Shown here in pieces: positions 10,186-56,334 of a stretch of 56,386 bases of DNA. Source of the stretch: Folioceros fuciformis. Taxonomy: Eukaryota. The stretch covers positions 73,354 through 129,739 of the forward strand of contig JBNGIO010006169.1 in the NCBI GenBank assembly GCA_049999805.1, given 5' to 3'. Under the pieces are notes generated by a model. That model was not told the DNA's origin. It saw only the letters and a list, made by a program, of their open reading frames with translations, and did not search any database. Positions within the stretch are counted from its first letter, which is position 1, and every line of letters begins with the position of its first letter. Position numbers and translations under genes: made by a program.

Positions 10186-13100
10186 CTCCCTCTCAAACTT
10201 CACGCTTAAGTAACAACTGGTCTGGAGCAATCTCCATAGAAATGAAGCAAGGCAAATAGTCCACCAGCGGGCAATGATTCTCCACACATGAGGCGTCCCC
10301 CACTTTGTGGTAGAAAACACATGTGCTGGCGGCGTAGCAGCAGTAGTTTTGAAATTGAAGAAAGCTCATAAAGAAAAATGGAGATAAATAACTCACAACT
10401 GGTTGTCTGCTTGTGGCTTCATCTACTGAGTCGTTCGCTCCCTCTGTAGGTCTAATCCTACACTATGTGTCATTCACATAAGTTGAGTAATCACCCAGCC
10501 CTAAGCCATCCATATGCTTATAGTGTTTTGGCTTAGAAAGTGCTTTGGTTAGAATGTCGGCCACATTGTCATCTGTTCCAACATAACTAACCTTCGTCGC
10601 CCCTCTATCCACGGCATTCCTGATGTAATGATGGGATATCTCTATATGCTTGGTGCGTGCATGGAATCGAGGATTAGCGACCCGGGCAAGGGCTGACATG
10701 TTGTCGCATAGGATAAGAGTAGGATCCTGTTGTGTCTGCCCGAAGTCCTGCAAGAATCTCCTCTCCCATTCAGCCTTCTTTGTGGCCTCAGTGAGAGATT
10801 TATACTCTGCCTCTGTTGAAGATAAAGATATAGAGGGTTGTTTCTTGCAACTCCAATTAATAGCAGCTCTTGCAAAAAGAAAACAATATGTGGAGACGTT
10901 GCGACGGGAGTCAGCATCAGACGCCCAGTCGGCATCTGTGAAACCTTGTAGGATGAGCTTAGCCTTGCCACTACGCTTGTATATGAGCCCATGTATCATT
11001 GTGCCTTCTAAGTATCTGAAGATACGCTTGACGGCAACCCAACGAGCCCTACCAAGGTGTTTTAAGAACTGCGACACTATACTAACTGCATACTAGATGT
11101 CAGGTCGGGTCCAATTTGCCACAAAAATGAGGCTCCCGACTGCATGTCTATAGGGTACATCCTGCATATCCAGTTGCTCCTATGGGTTCTGAGCACATTG
11201 AAGGCTAGTAACCTTCACGCCCACAGCAGCTGGGGTAGTAGTGAGTGGTGCCTCATCCATATGAAACTTGGTCAAAATCTCCTTGATGTATTTGTTTTGA
11301 TGTATGGCCATCACCCCATTAGCTCTCACTATCTGTATCCCTAAACAAAACTTAATTCACCAATATCCTTCATTTCAAATTTGTTAGATAAAAGCGACTT
11401 GACATGTTCTAATAGGGTCTTGTCATTTGTAGCCAATATTACGTCATCAACATATAAAGCCAAAATGACATATGTGGAGCCTTGGGTAAGCATATATATA
11501 TTGGAATCAGCAGAGCTTTGTACAAAGTTAATCTCCAATAAATAAACATGCAGGGTAAAGTACCATACTCTACCAGATTGCTTGAGGCCATATATACACT
11601 TGAGAAGAATTAAACTTTGTTGGGGTATTTAGGATCAATATACCCCTCAGGTTGTTGCATGTAGAGTTCCTCCTCGAGCTTGCCGTACAAATAAGGTGTG
11701 CATACATCCATTTGATGCAGATACAGATCATGTTCCGTAGCCATAGCAAGCAGCATCCTGATTGATTGAGATATGACTACGGGGCTAAAAGTCTCTTGGT
11801 AATCTAGGCCTTCAACCTACGTGAAGCCCCTAGCCACGAGTCTGGATTTGTAACATGCACTCTCTCCCTTGGAGTTGAGTTTGTGCTTGAAAACCCACTT
11901 GCACGAGATGGGTTTCATGCCAAGTGGCAAATCCACTAACTTCCATGTATTATTCTTGATCAAGGACTGATACTCATCCTCAACTGATGTACGCCACTTG
12001 TCACCATCAGGGCTAGACAAGGCTTGCTTCAAGTTGATTGGCTCATCAGGGATGACAGCAGCGAGTGATGTGGAAGTGTTGCGGAAATCTATAGACTCAT
12101 AGGGGGGCTCGATCCACTCGGCTCTAGGTAGTCTATGGCGGGTGGATCTGCGCAACTCGGGTTCTGGTGGAACTTCTACAACTTGTGGCGGCATGACATC
12201 TAGCTCTAAAACAGGTTCATGGTCATCCTGAAGAGGGTCAGGAACTGCATCTTCCATGAAAGGTTCAAGGTGATGTGCAGGGTTGTTGTCCACAACTAGT
12301 GCATTCAAGTGTTCATGTGCCAGCTCATCTACGGGTGCATGGGCAGGCGGGACATCATGTGCATCTAAAACAGGCAGACGGTTAGCTGGCAGCTCATCAT
12401 CTTGTGGATACATGGCGGGTACCTGATTAGTGTCTTACTCATCATCATAATCAGCTAATGGAGCTGCTCCCTCTTCTGACGTGGCCGGTTCACCATGAGC
12501 ATAGCTAGGTTCAATGAAAGTGACACTACGAGCTAAGATTAGAGAGTGAGTAACCGGATCATAGAGCTTGTATGCCTTGGCAGTCTCGTTGTATCCGATG
12601 AAAATAAGGCCCTTGGCTCTCATGTCAAGCTTCCTCCTCTTTTCGGAAGGGATATAAGCGAATGCCTTCACTCCAAAAACTCGAAGATGAAGTAGGCTAG
12701 GCTTATGCTTCCAAAATACCTCATATGGTGTCCTTCCATGTACAGCATTGGTGAGCACCTGATTGAGGATGTACGTCGCAGCAATTACGGCCTCTGCCCA
12801 ATACCCTTGAGGAAGACCTGCCCAAAGCAGCATACTCCTCGTCATACCTAGCAGGGTTTGGTTCTTTCGCTCGACAACTCCGTTCTGTTGTTGAGTATAG
12901 GGTACACTAAGCTGGTGCTGAATGCCATGTTGTGCCAAGTACTCGTCGAAGGCTGCGTTGACAAATTCCGTTCCATTGTCCATGCGCAGCATTCTAAGAA
13001 GTTGACCCGACTATCTCTGGGCAATAGGCAACCATTCCTAGAAACAAGTGAATGTATTACTCTTCAATTGCATAGGAAAGGTCCATGTGTACCTACTATA

Positions 13101-23400: not shown

Positions 23401-26400
23401 TCGTATCATGAGTTGAACGTCTGGGCTGAGCAGCGTGGTTGCTCTGAAGGCTTTGGAATGTGAGGCGATTATGGCCCTGTTCACAGGGGCGAAACGCTGT
23501 GTCCTCTTTGGTGACCCTCGGCAGCTGGCTCCAAAAGTTCATCAAGAACCTGGTGAGGACATGTCCGGCCAGATGGTGCTTTGTATGTCAATGTGCCCAC
23601 CTGATGCCGAAGCTCTCTTTTGTAGTGTATGTGTGCTCTTTCACCAAATTTTGAAGTCACGTTATGCACCTTTTTCCTGGCAGCTGCAGGCTTTGCACGA
23701 ACCTTAATGGGGCGGTTGCAAGATGTGGGGTTAGCTGTTCACTTGTTAACGACCCAATATCGCATGCATCCAGATATAGCGTACTTTCCTTCCCGCCAAT
23801 TCTATGGGAATTGCCTTCGTAATGCTGGACCGCCTGTTGAAGCGATCTTCACGTCAGAGGCTCAAGCTCTTGGGACATGGTCACGAGGTTTCAGGATAAG
23901 GCCAAGAAGCTATTGCTTCCTCGATGTGAAGTCTACATACATTTCTGTAGAGCATGAGGCCGTGGAGGTATACTTTGTCCCTGCAATCGTTGAAGGGCTG
24001 CTGCGAAGTTTGAAGCCAGGAGTAAGACCAAATGTTGGAGTAATTACGTCGTCCTCACAGGATATAGCACCCATTAGCATTGAGCTGCAGAAGTTTGGTG
24101 TATCAGAGGCAGTATGCGAAGTTAATACTGTTGATGGCTTCCAGGGGAGGGAGAAGGACATCATTGTGCTGTCTTGTTTGAAACCTAAGGAGGCTGGTAG
24201 CTATTTCAGTGATGACAGGATGTTGGCTGTAGCCCTGACAAGAGCGAGGCACTCTCTAGTCATTGTGGGGGATTCAAGTCTGCTTCGATGTGTGAGTTGG
24301 TCTTGGGAAGCTCTTGTAGAGGATTCCAAAAAGCGCCAAGTTCTTTGCCAGAATCTAAGGGAGAAAACTTGCAGTAAGGAGAGGCGCAACGAGATGAGTA
24401 AGGGGCTGCATATGAAGACAGGTCGCTATCGGGAAAGGATGGTCAGGGCAGGGCAGGATGCCTCTGTAAGCAGAATGGCACCAGGAAACAAGGTTGAGAC
24501 GCCCAGAAGAGCAGGGCAGAAGAAGTTGGCGTCCAACAATGCTGTACGACACGAACATAGAGGTCCTACACTCACTAGACGAAATAGCCACCATTTTGAG
24601 GAGCATGTTTATTTCGGTCAGGATGATATGAGTGCGAAGGTCAGGAGATATAACACCTATGAAACCCATGCTAGACAAAATAAAGATCCAGAGCCAAAAG
24701 TCAGGAGACTGAGGAGCCAGAAGATGAAAACAAAGGAGCAGGACAAGGAGCGCGAGCATGCTGCATCAGGCATAATTGACTCGAGTGGTCACCCAAAGGA
24801 GTACATACAGGGGGAGCGGAACTGCAGGATGCCACAAGTCAGCAGAGAAAAACCTGAGAAAGAAGCAAGGAGGGGGGTGCGCAAGACTCATGTTGAGGGT
24901 GAGGTACAAGAGGACGGTGGTAATTTTAGTGTCACTGGAATGACACAAAGTGGAAGGCATAACAGGAACAGTCGCCTGGAGGGCGAAGTCCAGAGGGAGC
25001 AACTCAGGGCCAGGGGAAAGAGGTTTAGGACGAGGGAAGATTCCGTGGCGGATGTTAGCTGCAAGACACAGAGGAAGCTGGACGAAGAGATGCCAAAGAC
25101 GAAGAAGCACAAGGGCAATGAAAGGGTAGGAAAGGCAGAGGTGAGAAAATGGAGCACGAAGAAGGAAAGCTCCGAGGAGAACATGATACAGAAAAAGAAG
25201 ATTGACCATGATGTTGCGGACAACTTGGAGCGAGGAAAGAACGAAATCAAGAGAAAAGTTCTTGAGGTGGAGGATGAATATGAGGAAGAATCTAAGAGGA
25301 AGCAGGGAATAGGCAAGCCATCAGACAGGAAGTCCAAGAAGGGTGAGGACGAGCCAAGGGTTCGAAAGAGGAATAAACAACACGATGGCCAGGTGTTAGG
25401 TCTTGAAGGTGAAATTGTGAGCAACAAGGTAAAGTCTGAGACGAAGCTAATGAATGGGAAGGGGAACCAGGTCGAAAAGACACGCAGGAAAGGTAAGGAA
25501 CCCCAGGTTGAGAAGAAGCTTAGAAGAGTGAAGGAGGACAAGGTGGTGGAGACGTTTAGGAGAGGTCAGGAAAACCAGGGTGAGAAGAAGCTAAGAGATG
25601 TTACGCAGGGCAACGTCTATAAGAAGTCTAGAAAAACAGGTAAGGAGTACAATGCTGAGCGGACGCCTAGGAATGTCCAAGAGGACAAGGTTGAGAAGAT
25701 GCGTAGGAAAGGTAAGGAACACCAGGTTGAGAAGAAGCTTAGAAAGGTTAAGGAGGACAAGGTTGAGAAGACACCCAGAAAAGATAAGGAAGACCAGGGT
25801 GAGAAGAAGCTAAGAGAAGTTCACGAGGATAGGGTTGAGAAGAAGCTCAAAAAAGGTATGGAAGACAAGGTTGAGACTACGATTAGAAAAGCTACGGAAG
25901 ATCAGGTTGACAAGTTAGGAAAGTTCAAAAAGGACAAACTCGAGCAGAAGATGAGAACAGGCACGGAGGAAAAGGTTCGGGAGACGCTAAGAAAAGGTGA
26001 AGGAAACCAGCTTGAAAACAAGCTTAGAAGTGGTGAGCTGGGCAAACTTGAAAAAGTTGGAGAAGGAAATCAACTAAAGGCGCAAAAGGAGGACAAGAAA
26101 TTGCGATCCCATTCAATTCAGAAACTGGAGGTTACTCCGAAGCAACCGGGAAGGACGAGGAGACAGGAGAAGCAAGATGACAACGAAAAAATAGTGCGAA
26201 ACAGCACTCGGATGAGAAGAAACCAGGAGATGAACATTGACAGGGAAGGGGACTCGCAGAATGGAGAACATAGGGCTCAGAGAAACAAGCATAACCAGGG
26301 TGCAATGGACGCGGACATCAGTTTGGGAAAGACGAAGAAGACGACTGCGGATGCAGTGGCTGATGCAGAGAGGAAGCCCAAAAGGCAGAAGATCGGGACC

Positions 26401-27888
26401 AGGTCCATCATCACAGGAAACTATGATGCTGGACTTGCTGACGAAATCCCAGAGCAATTCGAAGGTGGAAAGGCTGAGGAAAATGGGAGAAAAGTTGCTG
26501 TGCAGAGGAAAAATGGGATTGAACTAGGTGCAGATCCTGTTAAGTGTCAACGTAACAAAAGAAAGGCAGTGGAACCAGATAGTGCTGTTGAACAGAACTC
26601 GAATCCAGGGGGAAAAAACGTGAGACGAGGATCTAATGTGCAAGCTGCGGAAAAGAGTTCCCTCAAATGGTCCAAGATAGAACAGGGTGAAAGCCTAGGT
26701 GTATCAAACAAAGTGAGGTGGACAGGAGTGAAAGTGAGGAAGTGTGGGATGAAAAAGCACCAATCTCAGGATAGAAACGCGACCGACAGAAACTCCAAGA
26801 AGGAGAGGAAAACAAAGGAACCTGCATCAGAGCTCTTGGGCAGCCAGAGTGATGCACTCAGCAGTGATTGGAAGTGGGAGAGGACGCAAGCAAAAGGTAA
26901 GTTGCCAGCTGTTGTTGGTGTCCCGGAGAGAGGTGAAGAAGAGTCCCAAGCTACGAGTAGAAAGTACAGAAGAGAGAAATGCAAGGACTCCAATGCTGAG
27001 GTGCTGGTTATTTCCGCTAGTGTTGGAGATGGCCAGGAAATCGGTGCATCAGCAAGGGCAGGCAAGCGGAAAAAACGAGAAAATGATAGTGTGGCATTGG
27101 TTTCAGACCAGAACAGTGATACTCCCGGCAGAGACCAGAGAAGGCAGAAGCTCAAGAGAGATCCAGCTGACACGCATGCCAAGAAGGAGGAGAATTATCA
27201 TGTGGCATGGGTTTCGGACCACAACAGTGATCCTTCCAAAAGAGACCAGAAGAGGCAGACGAAGTCCGAGAGGGATCCAGCTGACAGAGAGGCCAAGAAG
27301 GAGAAGGAGGCAAAGAAGGATGAGGTAGACCCCATGAGTGATCCTTCCAGGAGAGAGCAGAAAAAGCACACGAAGCCCGACGGAGATCCAGCTGACACAG
27401 AGGCCAAGGAGAAGAAGAAGTTGAAGAAGGCGAAGAAGAACAAATCCCAATTAATTGATGCAGACCCCATGAGTGATCCTTCCAGGAGAGAGCAGAAAAG
27501 GCAGGTGAAGTCCGAGAGAGATCCAGCTGACACAGTGGCCAAGAAGGGGCCGAAGGCGAAGAAGAACGCATCCCAATTAATCGAGGCAGACTCCATTAGT
27601 GATCCTTCCAGCAGAGACCAGAAAAGGCAGACGAAACCCAACAGAGATCCAGCTGACAGAGAGGCCAAGAAGGAGAAGAAGGACAAATCTCACTTGATTG
27701 AAGCAGACCCTATGAATGATCCTTCCAGAAGAGACCAGAAAAGGCGGATGAAGTCCAACAGAGATCCAGCTGACAGAGAGGCCAAAGAAGGTGAAGAAGT
27801 ACGAATCCCAACCCAGGGAGACCCCATGAACTGTCGGAGGCATCAACGTAAAGTCTGGACGAGGCAAGTTGCTGGCACTAATTGCTAA
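20414..27888 (+). CDS. Divergent Sen1/MAA3-like (UPF1-family, SF1B) helicase with a very long Lys/Glu/Arg-rich repetitive C-terminal tail; 5' exon structure uncertain
   Basis: PLYFDGLEHYKKFFQCLIFEEAMA; Q motif LDDSQLGAV; Walker A LVQG|GPGTGK|TTTI; RILVCTPSTAA; Walker B FDVAII|DEAAQ; LFGDPRQLAP; LLTTQYRMHPDIAYFPSRQFY; NTVDGFQGREKDIIVLSC; motif VI RMLAVALTRAR. The last exon is one open frame of over 4 kb. Confidence 0.85.
25460..26075 (+). repeat. In-frame ~39-bp (13-aa) degenerate coding repeats (EKKLRKVKEDKV-like) in the helicase tail
   Basis: Recurrent ggttgagaagaagcttagaaa..gaggacaagg units; the protein shows QVEKKLRRVKEDKV / QGEKKLREVHEDRV periodicity. Confidence 0.8.
27100..27830 (+). 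repeat. In-frame ~105-130-bp coding repeats (DPMSDPSRREQKRQTKSERDPADREAKK), about 7 copies
   Basis: The gatccagctgaca and gtgatccttcca motifs recur throughout 27100-27830. Confidence 0.85.
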
Positions 27889-49321: not shown

Positions 49322-50118
49322 CTATGTACAGAAGACGCTCAGGAGAATCTTTCCGCGCTTGAAAAACCTGAAAGTAGGCACCACCTGCAACCGCACTTCC
49401 CTAGCCAATTCCTGGAACAAACACCGAAAAGCTTAAGAAGCAGGCATGACTGAGGGCACAGCAATCAGCAGTGTTCATTCCGATCCTCACTTGCATGGAC
49501 CAGCAGTGTACAGGGTAGGGTCTCTACGTGTACGACGGGTGCGAACTTTACGGTCTCTGGTGCAGTCGACCTTGAGGAACATCACATCTGTGTACTTCCG
49601 GGAAAGCTCCTTGAACTTGCCGGATATGGACTCGCACGGCGGGCACCAGGAAAGGAAGAGTTCAAACAGTACGTCATTCTGCAAACAAGCACTGCTCCGT
49701 CCAGTGAGTCAGGTCAGGGGGAGAGAAAAGCGGGGAACGCATTGCCATCGCCAAGGCGATGACGGCATCCTCACATACCTCTGGGTGTACATCTCCAGAA
49801 CCACCAGCTTGTCTCCAGCGCCACGGATGAGCTCCAAGAAGGCGTCCTGGTCTACGGCAGTGACTCCTCCGGCTAGCGCCCCCTCTGCGGAGTGATGCTG
49901 ATTATGAGAAAACGGTGATGCACAAAGCGCCTTGCGAGCAGGCCCTAACCAAGGTTTGGCGAGAGCGCCAGGCTGCGGCTAGCATGCCCGAGGTTGCGCG
50001 TCGGAAGCGCCATCGCAGGCGACAAGCAGTGCACAGGAGGGAGCTGTAGCAGCAGCCCGCTTCGCTGCGACTGAGCCTGGAGGCTCGAAGACGGGAGCGA
50101 TGGCAGCCCCTTTGTCAT
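49322..50118 (-). pseudogene. Thioredoxin-f-like gene, probably pseudogenised (broken acceptor, truncated C-terminus), CPPC active site
   Basis: Transit-like exon, then GGVTAVDQDAFLELIRGAGDKLVVLEMYTQ|(W/R)CPPCESISGKFKELSRKYTDVMFLKVDCTRDRK|ELAREVRLQVVPTFRFFKRGKILLSVFCT*. The Trx-f hallmarks MYTQ, FLKxDC and VVPTF are present; the expected acceptor reads TG, not AG. Confidence 0.75.
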
Positions 50119-50247
50119 AGTCCTTGTTCTTCCGAGAAACCATCGAGCGGGCTTTGACGCGACTGTGTCACCTGGCTCCTCCTCATGCAGGACTGCACGT
50201 ACACGTATTGTGGTCTCTGGTTCTGCCCGCGGAGTCGACTCAATCCA

Positions 50248-50572
50248 TATTTATTTCTTTATCATTAGGCATATGCATTTATTTATCATTAGGCGTATGC
50301 ATTTATTTATCATTAGGCGTAATAAAAATTTTGAGTTTGGGAACACTAAGAAGTTAGCGGTGGGAACACTAAGAAATTAGCGTAAGAAGTTAGCGGTGGG
50401 AACACTAAGAAGTTAGCGGTGGGAACACTAAGAAGTTAACGATGGGAACACTAAGAAGTTAGCGGTGGGAACACTAAGAAGTTAGCGATGGGAACACTAA
50501 GAAGTTAGCGATNNNNNNNNNNAGCGATGGGAACACTAAGAAGTTAGCGATGGGAACACTAAGAAGTTAACG
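50248..50572. repeat. 24-bp repeat x3 followed by a 23-bp tandem array (gggaacactaagaagttagcgRt) with an N gap
   Basis: tcattaggc has a period of 24; aacactaag recurs at 50401, 50424, 50447 and onward. Confidence 0.9.
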
Positions 50573-50618
50573 GATATCGGAGTAAGAACCTTGAAACATC
50601 TGCCGTTCGTGAAGTCGG

Positions 50619-51390
50619 TTAAGTAGACTCAATCTTCTCGATAACAAGCTTTATTGTGACTGTACAAGATGTTTGTCGAAAGACGAATGCCTTGCTGTTG
50701 CAAAGCTTCCACAGCCTGGAATTCATGTTCGAGCTGCAGCCCATCCTGGTCCCTTGTGTGCAACTTCCGAACTCCACAATTGTCATCCCGTCCCAATCTG
50801 CAACTTGCATGCACAAGGTGGGGCCCTGGTTAGTAAATGAGCACACATGAAGATGCACATCCAGGCAGGTAAGGAAGAGGAGTTACTTGCCTAAAACCAA
50901 TTTCTCCTTGGGAAACACCTGATTCTGCCCTTTGCTGACCACAAACTGCTTTTCTGCCATTCCATAGCCATATAGCTCCCGCAGACATCGCCTGGTAAGT
51001 ACCGCCACCACCAAGTACTTGGCAATGGCTATGGCTATGGCCCTCATCAAAATATCTTCTTCAACGTAAAGCTTCTCCGCCTTGTCTGCTTCACCTAAGC
51101 AAACATACTCTCTACCATCTTCTTCAGTCTCCCCATGGGCATTAACGCAAAACAGAAAACAATCGTCCTTTTGTAAGTCAGGATGCCTGAGAATTTGCTC
51201 CAACGTTGATTTCGCTTCCTTAAGATCGTCCACCGCACAAGCTATCTCAAACTTCCAGGGCACACCGCGGAGAAGAACGTCAAGTCGCCCTCTGTCTAGC
51301 TGTCCTCCATCTCTGCCTTTTTCTATACTGACCATCATTGCAAGACCTCGCCGGTGACCTTCATTCACCCTTTCGTTTGGATATCATGGT
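50619..51390 (-). pseudogene. Degenerate peptidase C14 (caspase-like) gene: p20-like exon plus p10-like exon
   Basis: YPNERVNEGHRRGLAMMVSIEKGRDGGQLDRGRLDVLLRGVPWKFEI...HPDLQKDDCFLFCVNAHGE...LYVEEDIL...; Cys candidates near 50981-50987; possible GC-AG intron (ag|gcaagt...ttgcag) to DWDGMTIVEFGSCTQG...FRQTSCTVTIKL*. In-frame TGA just upstream. Confidence 0.6.
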
Positions 51391-51759
51391 TCCTTCCCTG
51401 ACTTCAGTAGAGGCGATCCCTGAGACTGACTTTGGATATGATGGTTCCTTCCCCGAGGTTCTGCACACACTCAGTCCTGATGATCCCTTCTACTTGTTCA
51501 AGTCCAGGATTCCATTCAGGAAAAGCACAAAATGTTCTCAGTTTCGCAACAATACTCTGCTGGAGAAATTCGATCGTTTGTCTGTGCTCTTGAGTGACGT
51601 CATCAAAATGTGAAAATGATCACCAATGTCCCCGCTCTCCTCCCCAATATCCCCACTGCTCTCCAACAATACGTCCATACCATAGTAGTTAAATTTGATC
51701 CAAGTTCCGTGCAATGCCATACTGACGACAATAAGGAGACTAGTATGAGCAAATTGAAT

Positions 51760-52110
51760 CAGGCAAGCGAGGAAACATTTGGGAGCAACCAGATTCTGTT
51801 GCCCGGTACCATGACTTACCCCTGGGATGAGAACGACATTAAGGCTTTTACAGTGGGCCTCTGTCTCTTTGGCAAGGACTTCCATATGGTGAAGATATTT
51901 GTTGGGCAGAAGGCCATGCAGGATGTTCTGCACTTTCACTACAGCAAGTTCCATGGATCAGCGAGGTACAGGCGATGGTTGGGAGCAAGGAGAAACAGGG
52001 GCAGGTGTGTAAACGGGTCAAGCTTCGTTACAGCTTGGAGCCAAGAACAGCTTCTTGACCGCCTGTCTCCTTCTGTTCTAGACACTGCAAAATCTGCACT
52101 TGCTGAGGGA
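51760..52110 (+). pseudogene. Fragment of a plant SANT-domain protein (At1g09040/At2g47820-like)
   Basis: LPGTMTYPWDENDIKAFTVGLCLFGKDFHMVKIFVGQKAMQDVLHFHYSKFHGSARYRRW..RCVNGSSFVTAWSQEQLLDRL; only this internal segment is present. Confidence 0.75.
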
Positions 52111-52555
52111 CATACTGACCTGTCCAGGAAGCTTTTGGTTGTGGCTGCAAGGCTTATCAGTTGCAGAAGCGCGGGGGCCGGCCCGTGCCAGGACGAGGCA
52201 TCAGCAGAAAGGCTTCAAACTCACCAGCTAACCGTTGCTGGAATAAGTGGTTAACTGACTAATCCATCTGCTTATGGAACATCAAACAAAATATGTACAC
52301 AGAGTGGTTGCTAGCGTATTCTTGCGCCCAGTTGCCCTGGCATTTTATTTTTACTTGCGTTTGATATCCTCGGTGCCTTAGGGCCCAGGCAAGGGACCCA
52401 TACCCAGAGTCCAAATCCGGAGCGTAGCACTGAGCAGCTCGGAAACTCGGGAAATATGTTCACAACGGAACAAACCGATGAAGCGAGGAAGTGCTTCATA
52501 TTCTGTTGCGAAAGTGCTGTGCCTCCTGCAGGAATGCCTCCCTTCTGGTTGTCAG

Positions 52556-53008
52556 TTACTTCACTCGTCGTTTCTTCATCACTGTAGAGCAGTCGGTGCA
52601 GTACCATTTGCCTCTTGGCCGGGCAGTGAACCACTCTATCGGGCACTGATGTCCAAGTGCAGCAGTGTGATGAGTAAAAGGCATTGAGAAAGAGGTGGAA
52701 GGGAAGAACTGGAGTGGTTTCAGCAAATTAGCTAGGGAGGGAAGAATGTGCACCTCTGAATTGTCGCAAGCTATCATTTCACCAAACGAGACCTGGTTGC
52801 AGTAGCAGTACGTTGGCTCGTTTGGATGCACTGGTAGATCCATCTCCACTGGTGGGGCAGCAGGAACAGTGTACTGCCCTCTGCTGCAGAGAGCAAATTA
52901 ACCAGGATGCGACATGCTGAAAGAGAACTGCAGGAGGGAATGGACGCTTTGAAACAAAGTGGTGGTCTTGAGTGCGTACTTTTTCCTCCCTGATTCCTCT
53001 TGAATGAG

Positions 53009-54116: not shown

Positions 54117-56334
54117 ATGGCGATCGCTCTCCCGTCACCGACGATGATGAGGAAAGGGCTTGAGATGATCGGTGCATCCGGTCACCAATGGGTCCCACTC
54201 CCCCCGGCGCGTCCGGTCACCGTGTGGTCGCCCGGTTTCCCGTCGCGTCCAGTTGTTCAATGCTCCTGGTGCTCCTAGCTGGTGTCGACGCGCGCTCTGC
54301 CAGGTGGGAATGGCCATGACGCTGGGAGCACTGGTCAGAGCGGCGGGGGCCTGGAGAAGCGGCGCTCTCCTGGTCCTCGGTGTGCGCCGATCTTCTGCTT
54401 CAGCTTGTGGGGCTCTGGCAGCTGCAGCACCAGCTGCCGGACAGACCGAGGTCTGGGCCCATACGTCCAGGCCGCTGGCGGAGGCCATCCGGCACTACAG
54501 GCAATGCCATTGGCAGCTATCCAAGGCTCGGCTCAGGTGAGATGTGCCGAACAATAGAACATCGTCTCGCCTGGATGCCAATTGCAGGATTTTGACATGT
54601 GGATCCACCCTCCCTGCTGGTTGCCGGATGCTGGTCGTGTCTACTGCACGAGTAGGATTTGTAATGGGAAGCGGAGAGGTTGTGGACAGCAGCTGGGACC
54701 ACGATGGCTGCTGCATCTGTCAGCGCATTCAACCAGGTGCTAGTTTTTGCGGTTTGCAGATGATGTTGCAGCTCGGGGAATGCTCGCCACGCATGAATTC
54801 CGTGAACTTTGGTTCCAGGCTGATGCCATGGATTGATGGCCCCAGGCGATGGAAGTTGGCAACGATGCTGTTATGAAGCGGACCATGCGAAGGCCGCTGC
54901 CGTCAGGGCGCGTGACCGTGTCTCATGCTTTGGTGTGGGCCGCCTGTCTTGGCGTTACTGGCATTACTGTACTGGCCTGGAAGGTTCTCTCTCTCCATTC
55001 GAACTCTTCCGAGCACGGGATGGTGGAGTGACTCTTCTTTTTGGCGCCCGCCCTAACAAACATATTTCCTGTTTGCTGTGTCAAAGCTCTCGTTCTCGGT
55101 TTTGATGGGAAATTTCTTTCTCAACTGTGTTGCAGACTAACGCATTGACAGCCACCTTAGGAGCTGTGAATATCGCGTTGTACACTGTCGCATACACTCC
55201 TCTCAAGCAGATCCATCCTGTTAATAGTTGGGTTGGGGCAGTTGTTGGTGCCATTCCTCCGCTCATGGGGTAGGTTGAGTTTGTGGCACCACTTGCAAAT
55301 GAAATTGTAGTTGGTCATGCGCGGGGCTACCTCTTGCGTGATGTTATTGTCCATGTTCCGTTGTGTTATAGAGTCAACAGTGTTACTGCGTTTCCTGTTG
55401 TGCTTTAGCTGTGTGCCTTCAGGGTTAGCTTAATTGGAAGATGAGTCTTTGCCATTTGAAGATGATTTTACTCGCTGATGGCAGATGGGCTGCTGCCTGT
55501 GGACACCTTGATCCGGCAAGCTGGGTGCTTTGTACTTCTGGCAGATTCCGCATTTCATGGCTTTGGCATTTCTCTGCCGAACTGATTATGCAACTGGAGG
55601 GTATGGCTTAGGCTCTTTCGTTTTCTGGTATTTTGCTTCATTAACGTATTCAATCTAAGTATTCGAGACGAGTAGCCTGTCTCAGTGATTAGGGGTGTCT
55701 CAGTGATGGTATCCTCGTCAGATTACTTCTGATGTTTGACAAGACGTCGTGATTCAGGTACAGGATGCTCTCACTTCTTGATGTTTCTGGTAAAAGAACG
55801 GCTTCCGCAGCTCTTCGGAATTGCATTTATGTCTTTCCTCTCGGGTTTTTAGCTTACCAATGTAAGTAGTGACGAGTCGAAGCTTCATGTGCCGTATTGC
55901 CTGGGGAGTTGTGTTCTCTCGGATGCAATTTCGTCTGTCTTGTCACGTTCCTGAACAGGGGGTACAACTTCCAAGTACTTGACGGTGGAGACAAGCATGC
56001 TGACAACTGGCATGGCTTTGATGGCATCTCAATTTTATCTCCAGCCGTCGTCTGCAACGGCACTCAAGCTATTCCTGTCAAGCTTGCTTTATCTTCCTTT
56101 CTTCATGGCTTCCATGGTGGTGCATCTTCTGCCAAATCCAGCCGCCACCCCTATGAAGTTGGCAGAGAGGCAGGAGGTCGGGACTGGTACGAAAACGGAT
56201 GAAGGCAGTAGTAGAGATGAAGTGGCAGTCACGAACTCCAGAAAGACAAAGGCCCCCCTGCCCCCATCCTATGCGTGTCCATGGCCCCTTTTCCTTCCCT
56301 GGCTGTTCCTGGCTCCCCGAGCTACCGGACCTGA
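54117..56334 (+). pseudogene. COX10: Protoheme IX farnesyltransferase (heme O synthase) copy with frameshifts and a broken acceptor
   Basis: RHYRQCHWQLSKARL|MLVVST..; [72 protein letters not shown]. Lesions: CGG in place of AG near 54625, deletions/frameshifts near 54688 and 55530, 2-bp insertion near 56276. Confidence 0.85.

Follow-up and report, generated by a model that had tools for sequence, protein, structure and literature searches.

Do plants carry genes for true caspases? The question is raised by a stretch of 56,386 nucleotides from Folioceros fuciformis (contig JBNGIO010006169.1 of assembly GCA_049999805.1, positions 73,354 to 129,739 of the forward strand), called the window below, whose minus strand encodes at 51690-50619 the remains of a caspase-like protease gene. 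To our knowledge, metacaspases are the only members of peptidase family C14 credited to plants so far. Caspases are described as confined to animals in the pertinent passages of PMC5756287, PMC10896300 (bioRxiv 10.1101/2023.04.28.538660) and PMC13272413, and as absent from plants in that of PMC10565124, which rests on PMC5982838. The green-lineage sample set out in PMC5982838 consists only of Arabidopsis, Chlamydomonas and Volvox, so that bryophytes went untested there.

An earlier note on this DNA had interpreted the locus as a decayed member of a caspase-type family, distinct from metacaspases, in a plant lineage, and this interpretation is supported: the locus is frame-broken and internally deleted, its relatives carry Peptidase_C14, and the significant matches of these relatives among solved structures are animal caspases only. 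It is very probable that 51690-50619 is a rearranged, frame-broken pseudogene of a small multi-copy plant gene family, the intact form of which would have a cysteine protease domain of caspase type (MEROPS C14A-like) behind an N-terminal domain. The window copy appears to have kept the first half of p20, with the S1-pocket Arg and the His, and to have lost the continuity of its frame, the linker, the Cys strand and any recognisable p10; it would be unable to make an active protease.

The protease half of the locus

The frame open at 50883-51383 of the minus strand (166 amino acids) reads YPNERVNEGHRRGLAMMVSIEKGRDGGQLDRGRLDVLL...DDCFLFCVNAHGE. The earlier note had placed caspase-type motifs on this strand and gave the positions of the His and Cys codons exactly: the first S1-pocket Arg, located after the first strand, is kept as AGA at 51312-51314, the catalytic His of the (S/A)HG motif is kept within NAHGE as CAT at 51135-51137, and a Cys is encoded by TGT at 50985-50987.

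Taken on its own, this frame matches Pfam PF00656 (Peptidase_C14) at E 0.019 and 15.1 bits, under the cut-off of 21.4, and among solved structures nine of the 11 chains listed at E<=10 are caspase-8 (E 0.37-1.0). A word-index search gave 62 candidates, none of them at E<=0.1. Caspase clusters made up 21 of its 30 language-model neighbours in the ESM atlas (top score 0.92). A phmmer search of 1.84 billion representative proteins found nine matches at E<=1e-3, the best at 4.1e-7, and PF00656 is present in every one of the nine (E 1.4e-6 to 4.5e-39). When a profile hidden Markov model (HMM) was built from these nine distant relatives, it scored 88.9 bits over 51395-51051 of the window, and hhalign aligned the family with residues 10-117 of the window open reading frame with 99.0% probability (E 2.4e-18). 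Since all phmmer relatives carry PF00656, the profile reaches 88.9 bits and the hhalign probability is 99%, the resemblance of the p20 half to the caspase-type family is on these comparisons homology rather than chance, and far above it, though weak in single-sequence tests.

Relatives in liverwort and hornwort

Named relatives are found in Marchantia polymorpha, where they lie on chromosome-scale contigs (Mp5g08650, Mp6g00860, Mp6g00900, MARPO_0108s0037 and MARPO_0052s0114), and among the transcripts of the hornwort Nothoceros aenigmaticus; the remaining relatives come from Logan, JGI and ENA assemblies. Some of the Marchantia members bear the automatic name "Caspase family p20 domain-containing protein" in public databases. 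Searching with a family alignment (A2) recovered 13 proteins at E<=1e-10, and a larger alignment (A3), the search words of which came mostly from the N-terminal domain, recovered only two matches, both its own members.

Intact relatives, which include Mp6g00900, Mp6g00860, MARPO_0052s0114, P0005 and P0006, possess a His-Cys dyad, a two-Arg S1 pocket and the order p20-linker-p10. The linker between p20 and p10 contains at least one Asp in 15 of 18 distinct sequences and only Glu in the other three; the linker Asp is compatible with self-processing, which we offer as no more than a hint. Short forms also occur (P0001 of Marchantia, 186 amino acids; P0008 of hornwort, 301 amino acids). Phylogenies were reconstructed from 22 and from 17 of the 31 family proteins, leaving out near-identical Marchantia rows and fragments, and no supported clade in these within-family trees holds the window copy; its end branch, 4.18 long when the non-homologous tail is included, shortens to 1.68 when the tail is removed.

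In four Marchantia proteins of 807 amino acids (P0007, P0010, P0011 and P0013) the caspase domain, at 585-802, is fused to alpha/beta-hydrolase-like regions, with Abhydrolase_6 at 23-228 (E 2e-5) and the PADLOC model DUF626_VIII at 342-575 (E 2.7e-14). NCBI labels some of these proteins "protein SERAC1", and the hydrolase part of Marchantia P0012 has no match among solved structures at E<=0.01. According to the relevant part of PMC11218826, bryophyte nucleotide-binding leucine-rich repeat proteins with N-terminal hydrolase domains trigger cell death.

Comparison with known C14 proteases

The family matches animal caspases (C14A; caspase-6, -3, -7, -8, -9, CED-3 and Dronc) end to end over p20 and p10. 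Its profile found 225 solved chains at E<=0.01, and the best 60 of the 225 are all caspases; the top match is caspase-6 (E 3.5e-35), residues 40-289 of which align with positions 42-291 of 314 in the profile. With Marchantia P0013 as the query, all 33 chains at E<=0.001 are caspases, all of them from animals, and neither a metacaspase nor a paracaspase is among them.

The AlphaFold model of P0006, in which the caspase domain has a predicted local distance difference test score (pLDDT) mostly of 75-98 and a low-confidence loop at 308-330, was compared with 48,161 representative chains using VIA-align. Caspase-9, -3, -8, Sf-caspase-1, caspase-4, CED-3, Dronc and c-FLIP match it at Z 29.0-23.4 with 18-30% identity, and the best of these, the animal caspases, do so at Z 24.5-29.0 with a root mean square deviation of 1.8-3.1 A over 193-225 residues. 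MALT1, which shares the caspase-like p20 fold, follows at Z 22.0 and 19.8, but with 14-16% identity. Lower still are the Arabidopsis metacaspases 4 and 9 (Z 19.5 and 18.7, 13-14% identity), Yca1 (15.8) and TbMCA2 (12.9), metacaspase identities being 13-19%. A Geobacter homologue (18.2), legumain (17.6) and SAVED-CHAT (15.3) also match. Structure prediction, which the earlier note had named as a check, thus ranks caspases over paracaspase and metacaspases.

At the level of residues (Table 1; conservation was counted among 31 family proteins, and the denominators are the proteins covering each column), both pocket arginines of the family align with caspase-6 arginines in the printed profile alignment. 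In caspases the two S1 arginines confer specificity for Asp, and from these residues and the predicted fold we infer that the family members would be Asp- or Glu-directed endopeptidases acting like caspases. Caspase-6 and the family further share the His-Cys dyad, the ACRG strand, an Arg two residues ahead of the Gly after the first strand, and a p10 Ser-x-Arg...G-T/S-x-F-x-Q-x-L. The family differs from animal caspases in its low identity to them (20-30%), in having Asn or Ile for the Gln of QACRG and in an S-M-E motif after the first strand. It also differs in lacking CARD, DED or any other Pfam prodomain, in place of which there is an N-terminal domain without Pfam match or, in Marchantia, the hydrolase-like regions. 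The host is moreover a plant, and the window copy is without Cys and p10.

PF00656 covers all of C14 and metacaspases are what plants are known for, which would suit a reading of the family as a divergent metacaspase or orthocaspase (C14B) lineage merely resembling caspases. Plant metacaspases of types I and II (C14B; AtMC4, AtMC9) do share the clan CD fold and PF00656 with the family. We consider this reading highly improbable, since P0013 matches caspases in 33 of 33 cases, metacaspases stand 4-16 Z units lower against the P0006 model (12.9-19.5 versus 23.4-29.0), and Arg occupies both pocket positions as in caspase-6. Metacaspases are not the best matches of the family, and AtMC4 and AtMC9 gave no sequence match at E<=0.001. 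As stated in the sections of PMC5756287 and PMC10565124 that describe them, metacaspases are calcium-dependent enzymes that do not form dimers and cleave after Arg or Lys. Paracaspases are without a homologous p10 in the account given in PMC5756287, whereas the p10 of the family aligns with that of caspase-6. Among bacterial caspase models, NCBIfam caspase_w_EACC1 reached only E 0.04 and 13.4 bits (cut-off 140), and no PADLOC caspase model matched the family. By its sequences and predicted fold, the family would stand nearer to caspases than to either metacaspases or paracaspases.

Lesions in the window copy

The decay of the locus was traced in the window itself and in assembled contigs of three public sequencing runs (X1, X2 and X3), which carry one organism label, stem from two studies and are about 2-3% diverged from the window in the flanks. 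X1 and X2 are DNA runs; X3 was taken as RNA solely from its spliced joints, as GT..AG and CT..AC joints, in the genes flanking the locus, and a 93-nt joint at the locus itself occur in X3 alone and in neither X1 nor X2.

Upstream of the protease half, the window encodes part of an N-terminal domain common to P0003, P0006 and hornwort proteins. Residues 7-65 of P0003 match 51628-51464 in tblastn (E 3.8e-6), and an HMM built from the N-terminal parts of P0003, P0006 and P0018 scores 51586-51425 at 27.6 bits. The domain belongs to no Pfam family, has no relative among solved structures (one chain, E 0.38) and is modelled in P0006 with pLDDT of about 30-70, and for these reasons its fold is left unassigned. 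The ATG at 51676-51678 is probably the ancestral start codon, and the frame that it opens stops after 46 codons at the TGA of 51538-51540. The rest of the domain lies in a second frame; one X2 contig, at depth 83.7 of 197.8, has an additional base after 51579, which by hand translation rejoins the two. The protease part occupies a third frame, entered right after the TGA at 51386-51384, and the first in-frame Met of this frame (51338) comes after the first-strand motif. A direct repeat of 26 nt, the arms of which (51376-51401 and 51431-51456) are 92% alike, marks the deletion of the linker. We regard the locus as a pseudogene because of the stop after 46 codons, the two frames of the N-terminal domain, the TGA at 51386-51384, the repeat at the linker deletion and the absence of Cys strand and p10.

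That absence concerns everything downstream of 51047, where, at about residue 112-117, every family alignment with the window ends. The earlier note had proposed a catalytic Cys here, either in an in-frame RRC or in DVCGS of a shifted frame, followed by a second exon resembling p10, and neither was borne out. In a MAFFT alignment the window has Arg in the column of the catalytic Cys (TRRCL versus NACRG in the family), and no strand match was found in any frame. Neither the Cys strand nor the p10 of the family was detected in the three frames downstream of 51047, exon 2 included (HMM -3.3 bits), BLASTP of the tail gave nothing better than E 3.8, and in a crude shuffle control, in which rows without a score were counted as -99, the observed score was reached by 389 of 1000 shuffles. 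The p10-like reading corresponds to the other frame of exon 2, and neither frame matches the family p10 significantly. What stands of the caspase-like domain that had been proposed is the first half of p20, with its 88.9 bits, pocket Arg and His; neither the Cys of a QACxG strand nor a p10 was found in the window copy. Contigs of X1, X2 and X3 have loose ends before the 76-nt segment with the RRC Cys (at 51047) and behind it (at 50970), matching the window only from 51047 upwards or only up to 50970, and this segment is not demonstrably the catalytic strand.

The GC-AG-type intron of the earlier note is real insofar as it is spliced out in contigs of X3. The joints run from 50797 to 50891 in one contig and from 50799 to 50894 in two, and none occur in X1 or X2; the ends of the intron, CT..GC on the plus strand, are GC..AG on the minus strand. 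As its 93 nt are a multiple of three, exon 2 is read in the same frame as exon 1, and splicing leaves 223 codons open. The spliced transcripts come from the window copy or from copies that are 90% or more alike. A contig of X3 also joins 51656 to 51847 with 25 other letters between, for which a structural variant, or a transcript fusing the pseudogene with the neighbouring DUF7952 exon, is a possible explanation.

Table 1. Features of the locus and its borders, with the state of key residues in the family
Feature	Position	Strand	Evidence or state
N-terminal domain remnant, split over two reading frames	51425..51690	-	tblastn, HMM
Candidate ancestral start ATG (MDVLLESSG...)	51676..51678	-	alignment to P0003 start MEILLEHSG; weak HMM support
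One-base frameshift within N-terminal domain (...LMTSLKS / ...RQTIEFLQQ)	51575..51585	-	frame translations
Deletion junction, linker of about 100 codons in relatives gone	51376..51456	-	direct repeat, loose ends
In-frame TGA just ahead of protease frame	51384..51386	-	translation
N-terminal half of p20, first strand to helix after catalytic His	51048..51383	-	family HMM, hhalign
76-nt segment with in-frame RRC Cys (50985-50987), not shared by at least some other copies	50971..51046	-	loose ends
End of exon 1, open frame, no family similarity detected	50891..50970	-	HMM, BLASTP
GC-AG intron, 93 nt, ends GCAAGT...GCAG	50798..50890	-	spliced joints in X3
Exon 2, in frame with exon 1 to TAA 50619-50621	50619..50797	-	translation, HMM
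DUF7952 (SANT/ELM2-type) exon of neighbouring plant gene	51823..52128	+	Pfam E 3.7e-25
23-nt tandem array around 10-N gap (50513-50522)	50338..50569	.	repeat analysis
Arg after first strand (S1)	family		29/29 kept
Catalytic His	family		27/27 kept
Catalytic Cys	family		24/25 kept; P0003 has Gly
p10 Ser-x-Arg	family		23/23 kept
Gln of QACRG replaced	family		Asn 23/25, Ile 2/25

An open spliced frame with RNA-like coverage invites a different explanation, by analogy with c-FLIP, which acts as a decoy or regulator of caspase-8: the locus may encode a truncated, catalytically dead caspase-like protein that serves as decoy or regulator of intact paralogs. The c-FLIP protease-like domain has the caspase fold without a working dyad and matches the P0006 model at Z 23.4; the family likewise includes a dead member, P0003 with Gly for Cys, as well as the short forms P0001 and P0008. 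This explanation is unlikely all the same. The frame lacks a start and is preceded immediately by a TGA, Met 51338 falls behind the first-strand motif, the frame of the upstream ATG is only 46 codons long, the tail has no relatives, and the transcripts may stem from paralogs. Unlike c-FLIP, whose domain is conserved, folded and complete, the window copy has no start, is cut short and has its frame broken; it would be a dead relative of live paralogs, as caspase pseudogenes are.

Other copies in the same organism

Summed contig depth, which is not copy number, reaches 195-265 in X1 over 50523-51698 against 45-120 in the flank (two to three times), and the same bins give 85-218 in X2, most of them being raised over a flank of 31-97. 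Contigs representing other copies diverge from the window at 50551, 50658, 50865, 50970, 51047, 51455 and 51700. Translated by hand, the loose end at 51047 continues as ...DILKPIGESTYLA, the consensus motif of the family, where the window has DILMRAIAIAIAKY, and the one at 51455 runs on into a linker resembling the one in P0003 and P0006. Judging by these loose ends, fuller paralogs of the window locus would exist elsewhere in the same genome. The intact paralog that the earlier note had hoped for thus has counterparts of two kinds, intact relatives in other plants and, as the loose ends suggest, fuller copies in the same organism.

Multiple copies also raise the question of whether the breaks are errors made in assembling a repeated region, the true gene here being intact. 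A 10-N gap lies 100 nt away and one contig has the base lacking at 51579. On the other hand, the junction 51401-51456 is crossed, at a single-copy-like depth of 81.4, by an X1 contig that has changes at 51416 and 51423, 66-73 letters from where it ends, and since the junction recurs in this run, which is 2-3% diverged in the flank, the linker deletion is not an assembly artefact. The border at 51700 is bridged into unique flank in all three runs, by a contig that lacks one base there and shows changes at 51726 and 51731. Several independent lesions would all need to be errors, and we consider assembly error very unlikely as an explanation. The runs further differ from the window by insertions of 21 nt at 52627 and 10 nt at 55523, in or near neighbouring genes, which fit a different strain or haplotype about 2-3% diverged.

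Several points weigh against the reading of the locus as a dead member of a caspase-type family. For a dead gene, 223 codons make a long spliced frame, and there are transcripts; with these two observations, a truncated protein starting from the internal Met at 51338 is conceivable. The status of X3 as RNA comes from its joints, contig depth and copy number are different quantities, and the fuller paralogs are read from loose ends of 30 letters translated by hand. As to the family, its substrate specificity and activation by dimerisation are deduced from residues and fold, the Gln of QACRG is replaced, and the AlphaFold model may be biased towards those solved relatives that are best represented.

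Genomic surroundings

The earlier note had described SANT, ING and COX10 sequences of plant type next to the locus. The first of these is confirmed as a DUF7952 exon, the nearest two atlas clusters of which are Streptophyta (scores 0.96 and 0.95), while the ING and COX10 single exon pieces have no match in Pfam. The caspase-like unit of other copies diverges from the window at 51700, ahead of the DUF7952 exon. That the closest solved relatives are animal caspases could point to foreign DNA, of animal, protist or microbial origin, mis-joined to plant sequence. We regard this as extremely improbable, and the claim of the earlier note that simple contamination is not involved stands: the segment shares a gap-free stretch with the Streptophyta-like DUF7952 gene, and contigs of two studies cover the arrangement. 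Its nearest proteins are those of the chromosome-scale Marchantia assembly and of a hornwort transcriptome instead of animal ones, caspases show an identity of just 18-30%, and no relatives emerged from motif scans of prokaryote genomes and viral contigs or from tblastn of plasmids and phages.

On its other side, the repeated caspase-like unit has the 23-nt array as its 3' border; other copies diverge there at 50551, and a 24-nt array adjoins at 50253-50321. The window has six 10-N gaps, the nearest of which lies about 100 nt from the locus. Capture of the unit by a transposon was considered and rejected, as no terminal inverted repeats flank it and only two short inverted pairs were found. 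Rfam gave nothing over 49800-52400. Elsewhere the window carries P450, kinase and copia-type pieces. The copia pieces at 11817-13010 (minus strand; RVT_2, integrase core and retroviral SH3-like domain) lie in neighbouring frames and are probably a decayed element. A frame of 1420 codons at 23626-27888 (plus strand) matches AAA_12, a superfamily-1 helicase domain (Pfam E 1.4e-36), so long a single exon being unusual on this contig.

Origin and significance

The presence of the family in a liverwort, in a hornwort and in the plant of the window agrees with the family having been in land plants from early on and lost later; transfer at an ancient date is a further possibility. Motif scans of prokaryote genomes yielded 56 and 22 pattern matches and those of viral contigs 156 and 126, none of them confirmed, these scans being bound to the motifs so that distant donors could escape them; tblastn of plasmids and phages gave no match. 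A metagenome scan found seven short unlabeled loci (L001:959-1609 and L002-L007), taxonomically uninformative, with other eukaryote-like caspase genes that score up to 92 bits with the family HMM, and these might bridge the plant family and animal caspases. They carry the same GKPKVFFINAC(R/Q)G strand as the family. The caspase homologues of the foraminifer Reticulomyxa, as treated in PMC5982838 (Klim et al. 2018), set a precedent for genes of caspase rather than metacaspase type in a non-animal eukaryote, in a different lineage.

Full-text literature searches, made also by Marchantia gene identifiers, found no description of caspase-type genes from bryophytes, subscription journals and supplements lying outside their scope. 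The novelty lies in recognising a plant caspase-type family and in its biology; the sequences are already public under automatic names. The dead relic leads to intact chromosomal genes in Marchantia and to hornwort transcripts that are caspase-type by sequence, pocket residues and predicted fold, and since Marchantia is a tractable model, the question of true caspases in plants becomes directly testable. We put forward tentatively, at somewhat less than an even chance, that early-diverging land plants (at least the liverwort, the hornwort and the plant of the window) may have a true caspase-type clade, with a pocket of the Asp type and fused to plant-specific N-terminal modules, and that a caspase-driven proteolytic pathway, perhaps in cell death or immunity, may have existed in land plants and been lost in seed plants. 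If this is true, the rule that caspases belong to animals alone and that plants have metacaspases only would be wrong.

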